A DNA stretch of 64,000 bases, taken from positions 3,488,001-3,552,000 of the forward strand of contig OZ243916.1 in the NCBI GenBank assembly GCA_965213675.1, written 5' to 3'. Position 1 is the stretch's first letter; each line of letters opens with the position of its first letter. A program made the position numbers and the translations under genes. Below are positions 5,226-54,252 of the stretch, piece after piece. Below the pieces are notes generated by a model. That model was given only the letters and a program-made list of their open reading frames with translations, was not told the DNA's origin and ran no database searches. This DNA comes from an uncultured Candidatus Binatia bacterium (GTDB lineage Bacteria > Desulfobacterota > Binatia > UBA9968 > JAJDTQ01).

Positions 5226-5360
5226 GGCGATGTCCTTGTGATTCGCGCGCTCGTCCACGGGACACGCGCGCCGTGGATTGGCGTCTACACGGGCGTGCCT
5301 GGCGTCTTCCTCGCGTGGCGTCCAGCACCGCGGGCCATCGTGCCGCGCAACCGCGGCCCG

Positions 5361-6374
5361 TCAACCCCCCAGTGTAATCATCTCTATCTTGTCGTGTGTT
5401 CCGGGGTCGTATCCGTCGGGCGACTGGATCGCGTTGAGCCGTTCGGCCGAGAACCGGTCGGTGCGGCCGGACCAGACAGCCGCCATCCAGTCGCGGAGTT
5501 CCTCGTCGCCAGCCCCGCTCCGGAGCCGCGCCTTGAGGTCGTGACCGGTGCGGGAAAAGAGGCAGGTAACGAGACGGCCGTCCGCGGTGAGGCGCCCTCG
5601 GCTGCAAGTGCCGCAGAACGGTTCGGTCACCGACGCGACGATACCCACGGTGCCCGCGCCGTCGCGGAAGGCGTAGTCCACCGCCGGCGCGTTGCCTTCG
5701 GCCCGGCCGGCGGGCTCCAGCGGATAGCGCGCGCCGATGCGCTCCAGGATCTCGGCCTTCGGCACGGTCCGCTCCAGCCGCCAGGCGTTGGCTGTGCCTA
5801 CGTCCATGTACTCGATGAAGCGCATGACGAAGCCATGCTCCCGCCCGAACTCCACCAGCGGGAGAATGTCCTCCTCGTTGACCCCGCGCTCGATGACCGC
5901 GTTGATCTTGATGGGGGTCAGCCCGGTGTCCCGGGCCGCGAACAGCCCCTTCAGAACCTCATCCAGGTCGCCCCGCTTGGTGACGCGCCGAAACCGCTCC
6001 GGGTCCAGGCTGTCTATGCTCACGTTGATGCGCCGCAGCCCGGCCGCCCGCAACGCCGCGGCCATGCCGCGCAGGCGCGACCCATTGGTGGTGAGGGCAA
6101 TGTCCTCAATGCCCGCGATCCCCGAGATCTGCCGCACCAAGTCCGGCAGGTCCCGCCGCACCAGCGGCTCGCCCCCGGTCAGGCGGATCTTGCGCACCCC
6201 CAAGGGCACCGCCAGCCGCACCACCCGGCAGATCTCCTCGTAGGTAAGGATCTCCCGCTTGTCGATCCAGTCGTAGTGGTCGAACGGCATGCAGTAGGTG
6301 CAACGGAAGTTGCACCGATCCGTCACCGAGATCCGCAAGTCCCGCAAGGGACGATGAAATTGGTCCGTCAACAC
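5361..6374 (-). CDS. moaA: GTP 3',8-cyclase (radical SAM)
   Basis: LRISVTDRCNFRCTYCMP, RLTGGEPL, FCGTCSRGRLTADG, C-terminal GG. Confidence 0.96.
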   Translation of the reverse strand: MLTDQFHRPLRDLRISVTDRCNFRCTYCMPFDHYDWIDKREILTYEEICRVVRLAVPLGVRKIRLTGGEPLVRRDLPDLVRQISGIAGIEDIALTTNGSRLRGMAAALRAAGLRRINVSIDSLDPERFRRVTKRGDLDEVLKGLFAARDTGLTPIKINAVIERGVNEEDILPLVEFGREHGFVMRFIEYMDVGTANAWRLERTVPKAEILERIGARYPLEPAGRAEGNAPAVDYAFRDGAGTVGIVASVTEPFCGTCSRGRLTADGRLVTCLFSRTGHDLKARLRSGAGDEELRDWMAAVWSGRTDRFSAERLNAIQSPDGYDPGTHDKIEMITLGG

Positions 6375-6792
6375 GACAAGTCAATATGGAACCGGGGATG
6401 CGTCAAGTCAAGGAAACCCGCTCCCGGCGCGAACGGGTGCGTGCGCCGGATTTGGCCCCAATGATAGACCGAAGTCATTTCAGCGCTGCGACGAACTCGG
6501 CGTGTCCGCTGGCGTCCAGGCCCTTCTGCAACTCAGCCATGACGGTCATCATGTCGCCGGCCACCCGTTTCGCGGGCTTGCTTGTTCGACATGGTTGCTT
6601 CCACGCACAGCACTCCCGGCAAGGATAGACGCAAACGAAATGCCAGTCGAGAGCCGCAGGACGCCGTTCGTCTGCCAGGAATCACCGGCTATTTCGCGAA
6701 TCGGCAGGGATGGTCCTGGACCATGGGCGACGCTCATTGCGCGACGCTCTCTCAGCCAGTATGGTTGACCCCAATGCTGCATAAGCTGGGAA

Positions 6793-45450: not shown

Positions 45451-46155
45451 CTACCCTCCGAACGTCGACTGGTAGTCTTGCCACGCCTTGGGGCCGGCGC
45501 GGTCGAAGACCTTTTCGCGGAGCCCGCCGGCGTACTGGGCGGGGATGAAGTTGATCTTCTCGGTGAGGGAGGGTTTGAGGCGCACGCCTTGGGCGCGCAG
45601 TTCATCGGCCATGACGAGGTTGTCGAAGACCACGCGAATTTCGTCATGGTCGGTCCACATGGCCTTGTAGACGATGCGGCCTTCCTTGCTGACGATATAG
45701 ACCATGTTGGGAAGGACGCCGTAGAGCTGGTGCACGGTGCCTTGGAGGTCGTCGACGAGAAGCGGGTTCTCGATGCCGTCCTGGTCCCGGCAGTGGCGCG
45801 CGTATTCCAGCTTTTGTTCCATGTCCTTGTGGGGGCCGTAGTGCTCACCGGGATGGGGCTCGCGCACGTAGATGGTGAGAAACTCGAAACCCTTGTCGCG
45901 ATAGTTCCGGTACATTTCGTTGAGGGGCGAGACCTCGCCCACGAACGGCGGTCAGGTGATGCTGCCGAATTCCAGCAGCACGTGCTTGCGGCCCTTGAAC
46001 GCGGAGAGTTTGACCGGTTCTCCTTCCAGGGCGGGAAGGGTGAAGTCCGGAGCTACCTCCCCGGCCCGCAGGCGTGCGGCAAATTCGCCGGCCTTGGCGG
46101 CACTCTCCGACCGGTCGAAGGTTTCGTAGTTGTAGGCGCTGACGGGTTGACTCAT
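45451..46155 (-). CDS. Deiodinase-like thioredoxin-fold selenoprotein (UGA at 45954-45952)
   Basis: Two in-frame track ORFs join through TGA: APDFTL...FGSIT-U-PPF...IYVREPHP; SECIS-like hairpin follows; SD AAAGGAG. Confidence 0.9.
45916..45945 (-). promoter_or_regulatory. Bacterial SECIS element
   Basis: gggcgAGGUCUcgccc stem-loop begins 11 nt after the UGA; lower stem uucgu/acgaa. Confidence 0.82.
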
Positions 46156-51039: not shown

Positions 51040-51514
51040 GATGACCGGCCAGGCAATGCGGGAGCCGCGTGTCCACGTGGCACAGACCGCGTGCGCCGGG
51101 AGCGATGCGGGTTGGCGCATCGTCTGGCGTGTCACGAACCTGACGGCCTCGGATTTGAGGTTGCTCGACGCGCGTTTCCCGCACGGGCAGTTCCGCGGCG
51201 GGCTTATGGAACTCGGCGGCATGCGGGTCGCGCCGTCGGAGAGTGCCGCCCTGGAGGCGGTGGTGGCTTGCCGAGGCAGGCGCGGCGACGTGGTGGAGAA
51301 TGCCTTTCTGATCGCCACCGTGGAATGGCGCGAGCACCGTTGGCGCGTCCTGGCGCGCTTCACCGTGCGCTTCGCCGCGGACGGGTCGCCCGCCGCCACC
51401 ACGGAACTCGTGACGGTTCAGCGGGTGGGTTTCTCGCGCCCCCAGGAGCCTGCGCCGCAGGCTCCCAGCGTCGAGCTTCAGTGTCCGAAGGTTGACGAAA
51501 CGCCAACGGGATGA
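51040..51514 (+). CDS. Hypothetical beta-rich protein (start uncertain)
   Basis: High-GC3 ORF; WRIVWRVTN, PHGQFR, VENAFLI. Confidence 0.6.
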
Positions 51515-51625
51515 CACTCATGGATCAGCGCCATGGGGCATTCCTTGAAAGGGACCGTGGCGAGACGGATCCGGCTACGGCATCGCGACAGGATCGAGGC
51601 GGTTCACCGCCTCTGAAGGGACAGC

Positions 51626-51841
51626 ATGACGGAACGGGAGAGCTATATCTTCAAGCGCATGGGCGGCTGATACCGCAATTGAGGCCTCGGCTTCGAAGAG
51701 ACCGCGGGTATGGTCTCCAACACGCTTGACATGGAACTCGACGACCTCGTCGCGACGCTGAAACGCGTCCGGGAAACTTCCGGCGCGGCCCCCGAATACC
51801 TGGAACTGCGCGCGCCGCTTCCGGACGACTGGCCCATCTGA
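51626..51841 (+). CDS. Candidate 71-aa selenoprotein with two in-frame UGA (U15, U19)
   Basis: SD AAGGGA; MTERESYIFKRMGG-U-YRN-U-GLGFEETAGMVSNTLDMELDDLVATLKRVRETSGAAPEYLELRAPLPDDWPI; host-like codon usage on both sides of the UGAs. Confidence 0.68.
51698..51717 (+). promoter_or_regulatory. SECIS-like hairpin
   Basis: gagaccg-cgggua-uggucuc; apical loop 22 nt from UGA2 and 34 nt from UGA1, with G in the second loop position. Confidence 0.55.
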
Positions 51842-51867
51842 AGGACCGCGCGAGGGCGGTGTCGTGC

Positions 51868-52638
51868 CTACGCCTGCCGTGCTTCGGCTGGCGCGGCTGT
51901 CCCCGCCCGCGGGTCCAGTGGCCGGACGCCCGGCCAGAAGTCCCGCCAGCCGGTCATGGCCTGGACGTGGCCGTCCCACTCCAGCGTAAACGCCGTGATA
52001 CCGAGTTTCACCGCGCGCCGTATCTTGTCGCGGACTTCCGGATCGGTCGCGGCCCGGCGCAGGGTGTCGATTTGCCGGGAGCCATGCCCCACGTCCTGAT
52101 CGGCGTGAATCCGGTACGTCTCCACCTGCCGTTCAGAGAATCCGTAGTGTCCCACCAACTCCTTGTAGACCCGCGCGGCCGCGCCGTCCGGGCCGCCGTG
52201 CTGGCTCTCCACAAAGGCCAGCATGGCCACGCCCTCCAGCGCGGACCTGCGCTGGCAGCAGCCGATGATCATCTCGATGGCCGCCAGCGTGCCGGGCGTG
52301 GGCTCCGCGTTGTCCGCTTCTTCGCGTGAGACCCCGGCTTCCTCCAGGAACTGGTACATGATGTCCACGTGGCTGCGCTCGCCGGACAGCTCCTCCATGA
52401 AGTTCTCCAGCACCACGTCCGCCAGCCCCTGCTCCCGGTTCGCCACCGCGTTCACCGCCATATAGCCGAAGTAGATGGGGTTGGTGCGTACCCGGAGGTA
52501 GTGCTGCACCTCGCCCAGGACGATCTGTTCGCGAGTCCAACGGTGGTCGACGATGCCCTTGAACCAGGGATGCTCCACCATGGGCACTTGGTTTGCGTAT
52601 TCCCACAACTCGTGGATGAACTGATCCGGCGACGCCAC
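51868..52638 (-). CDS. Heme-oxygenase-like diiron enzyme (PqqC/CADD/TenA-like)
   Basis: EHPWF, ENFMEE...H, AFVE, HADQDVGH metal-ligand pattern; SD GGAGGT. Confidence 0.85.
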   Translation of the reverse strand: MASPDQFIHELWEYANQVPMVEHPWFKGIVDHRWTREQIVLGEVQHYLRVRTNPIYFGYMAVNAVANREQGLADVVLENFMEELSGERSHVDIMYQFLEEAGVSREEADNAEPTPGTLAAIEMIIGCCQRRSALEGVAMLAFVESQHGGPDGAAARVYKELVGHYGFSERQVETYRIHADQDVGHGSRQIDTLRRAATDPEVRDKIRRAVKLGITAFTLEWDGHVQAMTGWRDFWPGVRPLDPRAGTAAPAEARQA

Positions 52639-52821
52639 GGCGATACCTCCTCGGCGGGATTGATCCGGCCCATGCAAACGAGCATACTCGTATCTGGCTG
52701 GCAATCCAATACGGATCCGCGCGGGCATGGGGCCAGGGAAGTCCTCGCGGCGTCATCGCGCTGGATTCATCACGTTATTTTTGACGCGGGACCACAGGAC
52801 CGGCGCCTTGGGAGTATCAGA

Positions 52822-53292
52822 ATGCCTTGGTGGGGATGGTTGAGTATCGGTATCGTTTTGATGGGCGTGGAGCTGACGGCCGTCGACGCCGCGTTCTATC
52901 TCATTTTCGTCGGCGCCGCTGCCGTCTGCGTCGGGATCATCGGTTTGGCAGGGGTTGACCTGTCCGTCTCGGGCCAACTGGCGTCGTTCGCGGTGCTGGC
53001 GGTGGTGTCCATGGTCCTGTTCCGCGGGAAGCTCTACGACCGGGTCCGCGGCGGACTGCCGGGTTTCGAGTACAAGGTGGCCGGCCGCATCGTGTCGGTT
53101 GGCGAAGACGTTCCCTTGGGCGGTGAGACACGGGTAAGCCTCCAGGGCACCCAATGGACCGCGGTGAACGTGGGGCCGGCGCCGATCACGGCGGGCGGCC
53201 GCGCGCGTGTGGTCGGCAGAGACAGCGTGAGCCTGTCCATCGAGGGACTGGCGGGCGGCGCTGCCGGCGAACCAGGAGAGGAAAAAAAGTAA
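52822..53292 (+). CDS. NfeD family protein
   Basis: WWGWLSIG..LMGVE, TM helices, OB-fold GTQWTA; adjacent to the SPFH gene. Confidence 0.88.
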   Translation: MPWWGWLSIGIVLMGVELTAVDAAFYLIFVGAAAVCVGIIGLAGVDLSVSGQLASFAVLAVVSMVLFRGKLYDRVRGGLPGFEYKVAGRIVSVGEDVPLGGETRVSLQGTQWTAVNVGPAPITAGGRARVVGRDSVSLSIEGLAGGAAGEPGEEKK

Positions 53293-54252
53293 ATGGATGC
53301 GAATCTGGGTTTCATGATCACGGCGGGCGTTCTCGCCCTCGTCGTGCTGATCGTGCTCGTCAAGACCGCTGTCGTCGTGCCGCAACAGAGCGCCTATGTC
53401 GTCGAGAATCTCGGCAAGTACTCGCGCACCCTTCAGCCGGGCTTCAACATCCTGGTGCCGTTTCTGGAGCGGGTCGCCTACCGCCACAGCCTCAAGGAGC
53501 ACGCCATGGATATCGAGGAGCAGGTCTGCATCACCTCGGACAACGTCCAGGTGGGGGTGGACGGCGTGCTCTACCTGCAGGTGGTGGATCCGGAACGAGC
53601 CTCCTACGGCATCGGCAACTACATCTTCGCCATTTCCCAGCTCGCCCAGACCACGCTCCGCAGCGAGATCGGCAAGATCGAGCTGGACAAGACCTTCGAG
53701 GAGCGGGGCCATATCAACCAGAGCGTGGTCGAAGAGCTGGACAAGGCCTCCGACCCGTGGGGCGTCAAGGTGCTCCGCTACGAGATCAAGAACATCAACC
53801 CGCCGACGGACGTGCTTTCCGCCATGGAGAAGCAGATGCGCGCGGAGCGGGAGAAGCGCGCCACCGTGCTGTCGTCGGAGGGCGAGCGGGATGCCAAGAT
53901 CAACGAGGCCGAAGGCGACAAGCAGCAGGTCATCAAGGCGTCGGAGGCCGCCAAGCAGCGGCAGATCAACGAGGCCGAAGGCGAGGCCGCGGCCATCCTG
54001 GCGGTGGCGGAAGCCACGGCCGGAGGATTGAAGAAGGTCGCCGAGGCCCTGGACTCCGAGGGCGGCGACAAGGCCATGCAACTCCGGGTTGCCGAGAACT
54101 ACCTGGAGCGCTTCGGCAACCTCGCCAAGGAAGGCAACACCCTCATCGTTCCCGCCAACCTCAGCGACATCACCTCCATGATCAGCGCCGCCACTACGGT
54201 CCTCGGCGCCACCTCGGGGCGGGGGAACCGGGAGCCGGAACAGAGCGCGTAG
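53293..54252 (+). CDS. SPFH/band-7 (QmcA/paraslipin-like) protein
   Basis: VVENLGKY, CITSDNV, LAQTTLRSEIG, MEKQMRAEREKRA. Confidence 0.94.
   Translation: MDANLGFMITAGVLALVVLIVLVKTAVVVPQQSAYVVENLGKYSRTLQPGFNILVPFLERVAYRHSLKEHAMDIEEQVCITSDNVQVGVDGVLYLQVVDPERASYGIGNYIFAISQLAQTTLRSEIGKIELDKTFEERGHINQSVVEELDKASDPWGVKVLRYEIKNINPPTDVLSAMEKQMRAEREKRATVLSSEGERDAKINEAEGDKQQVIKASEAAKQRQINEAEGEAAAILAVAEATAGGLKKVAEALDSEGGDKAMQLRVAENYLERFGNLAKEGNTLIVPANLSDITSMISAATTVLGATSGRGNREPEQSA

Follow-up and report, generated by a model that had tools for sequence, protein, structure and literature searches.

A small gene with two in-frame UGA codons

The DNA examined here is a stretch of 64,000 nucleotides, referred to below as the window, from an uncultured Candidatus Binatia bacterium (GenBank assembly GCA_965213675.1, contig OZ243916.1, positions 3,488,001 to 3,552,000 of the forward strand). 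At 51626–51841 on its plus strand, between a gene for an immunoglobulin-like (Ig-like) protein and a gene for a CADD-like oxygenase, lies a small gene that, judged from comparison with its homologs, very probably encodes a genuine di-selenocysteine protein of 71 residues, both in-frame UGAs (codons 15 and 19) being read as selenocysteine (Sec, U). An AAGGGA resembling a Shine-Dalgarno sequence (51616–51621, read from the sequence) is separated by a 4-nt spacer from the ATG at 51626–51628; the frame then meets TGA at 51668–51670 (U15) and 51680–51682 (U19) and runs on to the C-terminal LPDDWPI and a terminal TGA stop at 51839–51841, and all of these positions, first given in an initial annotation made from the letters alone, were confirmed in the sequence. 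The same annotation had pointed out that the mechanical list of open reading frames (ORFs) misses the gene; the list indeed holds only an ORF of 43 residues (51710–51841), the ATG of which lies, by its coordinates, inside a stem-loop at 51698–51717. Public gene calls are mostly of this 43-residue form, or of a 51-residue form beginning at L21, and current annotation misses the family in that nearly all of the calls are such stumps labelled 'hypothetical protein'.

The read-through protein, used as the query, had full-length matches in 49 of the 61 genomes searched, which comprise that of the window and 60 relatives from three families of one order; each match has exactly two in-frame TGAs, a recurrence far above what chance would give. 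Identity among these relatives ranged from 92% down to 41%, and the 49 translated loci shared the conserved core R-G-U-x-x-N-U-G-x-G-F-E-E-T-T-G-M-V-S-N. A scan of one genome per species revealed that 206 of 238 pattern matches encode a relative, which gives the family a minimum of 206 species-level genomes, from little-known lineages of soil and groundwater and from sponge-associated ones; the best 80 of these 206 are metagenome-assembled genomes (MAGs) labelled mostly as Candidatus Binatia, 'Deltaproteobacteria' or Chloroflexota, with a few others. Among 129 related loci, which come from overlapping locus sets and include 95 unique nucleotide sequences, both positions are TGA in 127 (126 of 128 by a motif scan, plus L043, which the scan missed and which is TGA/TGA by translation). 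The exceptions are L103 (TGC/TGA) and L109 (TGT/TGT), the latter gene being that of NCBI protein P0007. Counted over the unique sequences, the first position is TGA in 93 of 95 (TGC and TGT once each) and the second in 94 of 95 (TGT once), and both are Cys columns in a sister subfamily. It was also noticed that L103 and L126, both on MAG contigs, encode an identical protein except at position 15, which is TGC in the former and TGA in the latter; either a very recent Sec/Cys switch or a base-call difference would account for this.

The sister subfamily came from a profile search over 1.84 billion representatives, which returned 127 proteins at E ≤0.001, most of them 43-residue stumps. Of the 23 representatives that span the N-terminus, 22 are remote homologs in which both columns are Cys (G-N-C-Y-x-x-C ... 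L-P-x-E-F-P), and the remaining one reads another frame. When metagenomes were scanned with the Cys forms, 122 of 272 pattern matches proved to encode a relative, and all 80 loci retained for the Cys subfamily had TGC or TGT at both positions. In the joint alignment of the two subfamilies, C15, C19, F23, T26, M29, R63, P67 and P71 are invariant. The check proposed at the outset, an alignment of homologs at positions 15 and 19, hence gave TGA or Cys at these columns and never Trp or Arg.

The codons before, between and after the UGAs evolve alike, under equal purifying selection. The ratio of nonsynonymous to synonymous divergence (dN/dS) is 0.30 for codons 2–14, 0.30 for codons 16–18 and 0.29 for codons 33–71, and the variability at the three codon positions is 0.35/0.24/0.55 before the UGAs and 0.40/0.22/0.56 after them, so that the N-terminus appears to be translated in the same frame as the rest. 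A conservation that begins only at M29, named beforehand as the pattern that would speak against the gene, was therefore not what the alignment contains, since codons 2–14 have the same constraint and the same third-position periodicity as codons 33–71. These values bear on the view that the UGAs are plain stops, in which only the 43-residue ORF from M29 would be made and the upstream part would be a leader RNA or upstream ORF, or the whole a decaying pseudogene. Such a view agrees with the public calls, mostly of 43 residues or of 51 from L21, and with the unremarkable fold of the RNA taken as a single sequence. However, it does not account for the constraint that codons 2–14 and 16–18 share with the rest, for the replacement of both stops by Cys codons only, or for a structure model in which residues 1–28 belong to the domain with a predicted local distance difference test score (pLDDT) above 90 and N-terminal residues lie in a predicted interface; nor would a pseudogene be expected to retain both TGAs in 127 of 129 loci spread over different phyla. 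We consider this explanation very improbable.

Reading of the UGAs as an amino acid other than Sec (Trp, Gly, or Cys by a near-cognate tRNA; a local change of the code) was suggested by some database forms with W at both positions. These forms also read their terminal TGAs as W and are for that reason best taken as gene calls made under a TGA=Trp code, that is, as a product of the caller's code. TGA is the ordinary stop in 34 of the 95 family members, which argues against a reassigned code, and it also ends the upstream gene; only Cys codons replace the in-frame TGAs in nature, the genome has the Sec machinery and the hairpins described below accompany the TGAs. Of all the alternatives weighed here, this one appears the least probable, being close to negligible.

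Other frames over the region were also considered. The ORF at 51511–51729, with an ATG overlapping the upstream gene's stop codon, was rejected as a coupled gene, being conserved in 2 of 41 close and 0 of 87 far loci, and antisense ORFs were rejected because third-position variability tracks the plus-strand frame. Separately, three proteins in ENA (P0017, P0027 and P0213) have a shifted frame, C-A-V-D-x-A-I-E, exactly over the two UGAs, after which the main frame resumes. A gene caller such as FragGeneScan can change frame to get past a stop, and the three are likely products of such a caller rather than natural variants or real indels.

Hairpins downstream of the UGAs and the Sec machinery

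Analysis of the 95 unique sequences with RNAalifold revealed two tandem hairpins. Hairpin 1 (51680–51695, plus strand; UGAGGC / loop CUCG / GCUUCG) starts 9 nt after the first UGA and has the second UGA in its 5′ strand, so that the codon at 51680–51682 doubles as one side of the stem. Hairpin 2 (51698–51717, plus strand; GAGACCR / CGGGNA / UGGUCUC, in the window gagaccg/cgggua/uggucuc) is apical and resembles a selenocysteine insertion sequence (SECIS); it begins after spacers of 27 nt from the first UGA and 15 nt from the second, and its loop starts 34 and 22 nt after them, respectively, at the positions originally reported. The proposal of one shared SECIS-like hairpin was accordingly borne out in part: hairpin 2 is conserved, but there are two conserved hairpins, the first with the second UGA in its stem, and a single shared SECIS is for this reason only one of two readings.

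Standard pairs occupy 97.4% of 1218 cells, against 27–55% when the partners are slid by 1–3 columns; for hairpins 1 and 2 taken separately, the paired cells amount to 94.9% and 99.8%. All 85 Sec forms examined retain 6 or more of the 7 pairs in each hairpin, whereas among the Cys forms, which are more GC-rich, as many pairs are found for hairpin 1 in 0 of 65 and for hairpin 2 in 11 of 65. In codons 20–32, synonymous divergence is reduced to 0.25 from 0.63. Within hairpin 1 the wobble positions are frozen in codon 20 (GGC in 80 of the 95 sequences, GGG in 1), codon 22 (GGC in 81, with no other Gly codon) and F23 (TTC in 94), and within the stem of hairpin 2 they are frozen in E25 (GAG, 95/95), T26 (ACC, 95/95) and V30 (GTC, 93/95). 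Free wobble variation was seen outside the stems, namely at G28 in the loop of hairpin 2, at E24 between the hairpins and at S31 after them. In L109, the sole Cys-Cys member within the Sec-form subfamily, hairpin 1 is disrupted and V30 has the only GTT.

In the consensus model of bacterial SECIS elements, for which fdhF is the paradigm, the distance from the UGA to the loop is roughly 16–37 nt. The structures found here resemble a bacterial SECIS in that a stem-loop lies directly 3′ of the UGA within the coding region, with a G early in the apical loop; they differ from it in the presence of two UGAs and two tandem hairpins, the second UGA being inside the first stem. An Rfam scan of 51500–51900 at E ≤10 gave two chance matches and no SECIS family. 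By analogy, SelB with Sec-tRNA(Sec) would dock on the invariant apical hairpin at 51698–51717, and because both UGAs fall within the 16–37 nt window, this hairpin may be used twice while the ribosome advances four codons. Alternatively, hairpin 1 would serve the first UGA and hairpin 2 the second. Its two conserved hairpins make the locus a natural system in which to study how two Sec residues, four codons apart, are inserted under the direction of a single short stretch of mRNA.

The machinery needed for Sec was found in the genome above curated cut-offs: selA (593 bits), selB (379 bits), selD (377 bits) and tRNA-Sec (75 bits, two identical matches), of which selA, selB and selD adjoin at G000:C1:2713784–2718389 (loci L001, L002 and L010), so a lack of Sec machinery, listed earlier among the observations that would count against the gene, does not apply. 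selD itself has an in-frame TGA (U31), and 25 nt downstream of it begins an 8-bp hairpin (z = −2.8), a placement comparable to that of the hairpins described here. In addition, the region at 45451–46155, which had been cited as an independent sign of Sec decoding, encodes, when read on the minus strand, a protein of thioredoxin fold whose single in-frame TGA falls in FGSITUPPF, and supports that use; the gene looks like that of a deiodinase-like selenoprotein. A Pfam scan of the plus-strand translation of the same region gave no match. Since selA is above the cut-off in 58 of the 61 relatives, its co-occurrence with the small gene does not discriminate.

The alternation of TGA with Cys, the coding constraint, the hairpins linked to the TGAs and the Sec machinery together support the di-selenocysteine UxxxU reading that had been put forward. 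Several points weigh against it. The Sec call is based on sequence comparison of the gene and its homologs, and two successive UGAs should lower the yield. As a single sequence, the RNA folds no better than its shuffles (z = −0.01; 85 of 200 shuffles as stable or more), so that the support for the hairpins comes from comparison and not from thermodynamics. The covariation check suggested at the outset turned out mixed, in that pairing is kept at 97.4% but true covariation is limited to one pair of hairpin 1 changed on both sides in 2 sequences, a count reached by 30 of 500 shuffles. What supports the hairpins is invariance, and this coincides with codons that are strongly conserved at the protein level and specify residues of the predicted interface; as these codons encode the most conserved residues, constraints on RNA and protein are not fully separable. 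The stem and loop sequences also differ from those of the selD hairpin of the same genome. selA was not found in G041 and G054, fragmented assemblies that are 92% and 96% complete, though both have the small gene. Finally, RNA evidence for the gene is weak: contigs of a relative of about 90% identity cover it in two RNA libraries of one study, and these libraries may contain DNA.

The neighbouring genes, the fold of the small protein and a predicted complex

Upstream of the small gene, on the same strand, lies the gene for the Ig-like beta-sandwich protein (51041–51514), the predicted binding partner, which was identified by tblastn, profile search and fold. Its exact start is in doubt: the ORF is open from 50882, relatives are similar from about 51065 onwards, and the ATGs at 51041 and 51056 are candidates; the profile search places the gene at G000:C1:3539065–3539436, which is 51065–51436 in the window. 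The protein has about 125–137 residues and a CARDB/DUF1573-like fold (TM-score of about 0.6), and no match to it was found in Pfam or NCBIfam. N34, P48, H49, F91 and R108 are invariant and Cys79 is nearly so.

Downstream of the small gene and convergent with it, on the minus strand, is the CADD-like gene of the heme-oxygenase-like (HDO) type (51868–52728; Pfam Haem_oxygenas_2, 1.1e-16), the true start of which is probably downstream of the ATG at 52728. The solved chains closest to its product are CT610/CADD and 4-aminobenzoate synthases (E about 1e-13 to 8e-12), and against TIGR04305 it scored 59.1 bits, the cut-off being 200. Six aligned dimetal ligands are kept (E81, H88, E142, H174, D178 and H181, numbered by counting on the alignment), which we take to be those of CADD; at the position of CADD Tyr27, the window protein has Phe (HPWFKG).

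Gene order was counted in 79 loci with 4-kb flanks: the Ig-like gene is upstream on the same strand in 78, and the heme-oxygenase-like gene is downstream on the opposite strand in 76. By tblastn, the Ig-like gene was detected in 126 of the 129 loci, and among the 87 loci outside the genus-level group, with the window proteins as queries, the Ig-like gene was found in 85 (median identity 38%) and the oxygenase gene in 77 (median identity 71%). Within the order, the Ig-like gene occurs in the same 49 of 61 genomes as the small gene and was not found in the remaining 12, and the oxygenase gene in those 49 and as a contig-end fragment in G057. The genomes without the module fall in 5 of 14 genera, several of them being 97–100% complete; since related genomes are not independent, this co-occurrence is to be read as a pattern and not as a statistic. 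Other neighbours vary, the most frequent in 62 far loci being Amidohydro_2 (14), UbiD (12), a second HDO (12), LysE (11), GFO/IDH/MocA (10) and cupin (9).

In the Cys subfamily the neighbour is an HDO-fold gene of a different kind, of the TENA/PqqC family with a C2H2 zinc finger (closest solved chain 4lqx, 2e-89), whose start overlaps the stop of the small gene; in 74 of the 80 loci, the next gene after the small one is on its own strand. Directly after the TENA-like gene comes a Ta0938/TRASH-like gene for a Cys-rich metal-binding protein (L164 4626–4931, Pfam Ta0938 1.6e-28; also in other Cys loci). tblastn found the Ig-like gene in 0 of the 80 Cys-form loci, a result that applies to these loci and does not mean absence from the genomes. 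Because it is seen in both the Sec and the Cys subfamilies, the pairing of the small family with an HDO-fold enzyme has been kept in two gene arrangements. On these grounds of gene order and co-occurrence, the balance is in favour of the small protein working together with the oxygenase.

Structure prediction from the 95-sequence alignment (pLDDT 93.3; predicted TM-score 0.78) models the small protein as a compact four-helix domain (helices 3–19, 23–33, 38–52 and 56–62), in which helix 1 ends with U15 and U19, separated by one helical turn. For the natural, standard-code pair of L109, its Ig-like protein and the Cys-Cys form P0007, a complex was predicted with a score of 0.88, the best of 3 controls scoring 0.01; this mark is reached by 116 of 157 solved complexes and by 2 of 215 mismatched pairs, counts that are rough here as custom alignments were used. 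Contacts are shared between runs to 94% or more, and the partner has a pLDDT of 88 or higher. In the model, both proteins contribute their invariant residues to the interface, which includes residues 17 and 21 of P0007, the two Sec positions; P0007 residues 20–21 contact P48, H49 and residue 50 of the Ig-like protein. These predictions suggest that the small protein is probably a physical partner of the Ig-like protein.

The folds nearest to the small protein are helix-turn-helix (HTH) DNA-binding domains (Foldseek TM-score 0.55–0.59, E ≥0.68; VIA-align Z ≤6.6), and matches in the Atlas include GerE and Sigma70_r4 (TM-score 0.55–0.65). It could accordingly be a redox- or metal-sensing regulator, a stand-alone GerE-like tetra-helical HTH in which the selenols would switch DNA binding to control the neighbouring genes. 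Nearly all of the best structural matches are of this kind (LuxR/GerE, NarL, sigma-70 region 4 and the N-terminal domain of MntR), and GerE-type regulators are of a size like that of the small protein; the C-terminal domain of GerE/LuxR and sigma-70 region 4 share with it four helices of similar lengths and order in about 70 residues. The matches are, however, at noise level, as with helical bundles Z values carry little weight until they reach about 13, and no HTH model of Pfam (GerE, Sigma70_r4) was matched by the window protein at E ≤0.1, by P0007 at E ≤1 or by 12 Cys forms at E ≤0.1. Unlike these domains, the small protein is acidic (13 Asp/Glu vs 8 Lys/Arg), helix 38–52, the would-be recognition helix, is its most variable part, and its most conserved surface is predicted to bind protein. 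A role as a DNA-binding regulator is thus improbable. A sequence-profile search of solved structures gave nothing below E 0.15 for the small protein, and a feature-based search of the ESM Atlas gave no usable match for P0007.

Possible function and comparison with described systems

The explanation that we consider likely as a whole is that a di-Sec protein forms a heterodimer with the Ig-like protein and that the site so formed serves the oxygenase. Both Sec residues are predicted to lie in the interface, the second at the invariant Pro48-His49 of the partner. The two selenols, possibly together with His49, may form a metal-binding or redox-active site accessory to the CADD-like dimetal oxygenase, a suggestion that we put forward tentatively and at somewhat less than even chance. 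Such a site would deliver or hold metal for the oxygenase, or pass electrons to it; of these, the handling of metal fits better with what adjoins the Cys forms, a zinc-finger protein and a TRASH-like one.

To be set on the other side are the following: 1) the modelled pair consisted of the Ig-like protein of L109 and the Cys-Cys form P0007, from another phylum, and not of the window's own protein; 2) the nearest folds of the small protein are the HTH domains named above; 3) the link with the oxygenase comes only from gene neighbourhood and from co-occurrence among related, non-independent genomes; and 4) in G061, a genome with the Cys-Cys form, the oxygenase gene, though on the same contig and still convergent, is 5.7 kb away.

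CADD and the window oxygenase have in common the heme-oxygenase-like fold and all six aligned metal ligands. They differ in that the latter has Phe in place of the sacrificial Tyr27 and is far below the TIGR04305 cut-off. In the accessible part of the CADD study, Tyr27 of the enzyme itself is consumed as the source of the 4-aminobenzoate and the Y27F variant is inactive, and a neighbouring selenoprotein and Ig-like pair is not described there (PMC9522330). An oxygenase without Tyr27 keeps alive the idea that its substrate is supplied in trans, so that the small protein could be consumed by the CADD-like enzyme, either as the donor of a protein-borne residue or as a precursor like that of a ribosomally synthesized and post-translationally modified peptide (RiPP). 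In favour of it, the neighbour has Phe and still keeps the six ligands, Tyr58 of the small protein is nearly invariant, and the small protein is paired with an HDO-fold enzyme in both subfamilies. A stoichiometric substrate with two selenocysteines would, however, be costly, and the 71 residues are conserved and form a stable domain in the model, unlike a leader-plus-core peptide. Consumption as a substrate is therefore held to have little probability, about as little as the DNA-binding role. The initial annotation had listed a modified-peptide precursor among its options. An adjacent oxidase is present, as it would be for a RiPP, but the conservation of the whole length, which models as a confident folded domain (pLDDT 93) with a predicted protein partner, argues against it, and that option now seems unlikely.

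A more speculative version of the accessory-site reading is that the interfacial Sec-Sec-His centre is the dedicated partner of the Tyr27-less oxygenase, giving a catalytic two- or three-component system, and that the Cys-Cys family does the same for the TENA/PqqC-like enzymes of other microbes. The centre would then supply electrons, metal or a reacting residue in trans, replacing a self-destroying single turnover. We regard this as unlikely, though less so than the substrate or regulator roles; if true, it would mean a widespread, unrecognised accessory class for heme-oxygenase-like oxidases, with a selenium version.

The small protein appears to be new. No model in Pfam or NCBIfam matches the Sec or the Cys forms: with NCBIfam release 20.0, the window protein hit 0 families, two homologs gave noise only (E ≥0.01), and 12 Cys forms gave noise only (E ≥0.0012), far below the cut-offs. 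The models of double-Sec proteins (NF041115, TIGR02605, NF045694, NF045648 and others) were unmatched by the window protein and two homologs at E ≤1 and by the 12 Cys forms at E ≤0.1. Families with UxxU and UxxxxU are present in the table of prokaryotic selenoprotein families of a 2026 review, in the accessible text of which the UxxxU motif has 0 occurrences (PMC13188914); the families of Haft and Tolstoy 2025 were compared as rows of that table. A literature search found no paper on a UxxxU, Binatia or heme-oxygenase-like diiron selenoprotein, or on one linked to a CxxxC motif and a SECIS; the BSepDB supplement was covered by a search for terms, which may leave out its Table S2. The first impression that this is no described selenoprotein family accordingly holds for Pfam, NCBIfam and the accessible review table. 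Described double-Sec families resemble the present one in having two UGAs a few codons apart in a short motif, presumably served by a downstream RNA structure, in having Cys-Cys homologs, and in the redox or metal role proposed for them. There is, however, no sequence relationship, the spacing here is UxxxU with both residues modelled on one face of a helix, and Sec-Sec is found in 127 of 129 loci. We know of no Sec pair with this one-face geometry in the listed double-Sec families. Two selenocysteines one helical turn apart are unusual, as is the retention of Sec-Sec in nearly every member of the subfamily.

CsoR-type Cu(I) sensors bind their metal via Cys and His on helices from two subunits. 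As a lead only, chalcogen ligands at i and i+4 on a helix, together with a His across the interface, would resemble the CsoR site, with the difference that here the His would come from the Ig-like partner.

We file the protein as a new selenoprotein family with an unusual layout of two UGAs and two hairpins and with a new protein context. It links selenium to the heme-oxygenase-like dimetal enzymes, which form, to our knowledge, a fast-growing class whose supply of electrons and metal is mostly unknown, and it offers a ready hypothesis for that supply, a small CxxxC or UxxxU accessory protein, which could be tested via the natural Cys form.

Two minor observations concern the surroundings. At L109, three genes lie between the small gene and the distant oxygenase gene (5303–6654, minus strand), which by eye were named an FMN-dependent dehydrogenase-like gene, a DUF692/MbnB-like gene and a small partner. 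In the window, a Band 7/SPFH gene with Pfam matches is located at 53293–54252, and upstream of it, on the same strand, an ORF at 52369–53292 looks by eye like an NfeD-like membrane protein; this pair appears to be unrelated to the three-gene module.

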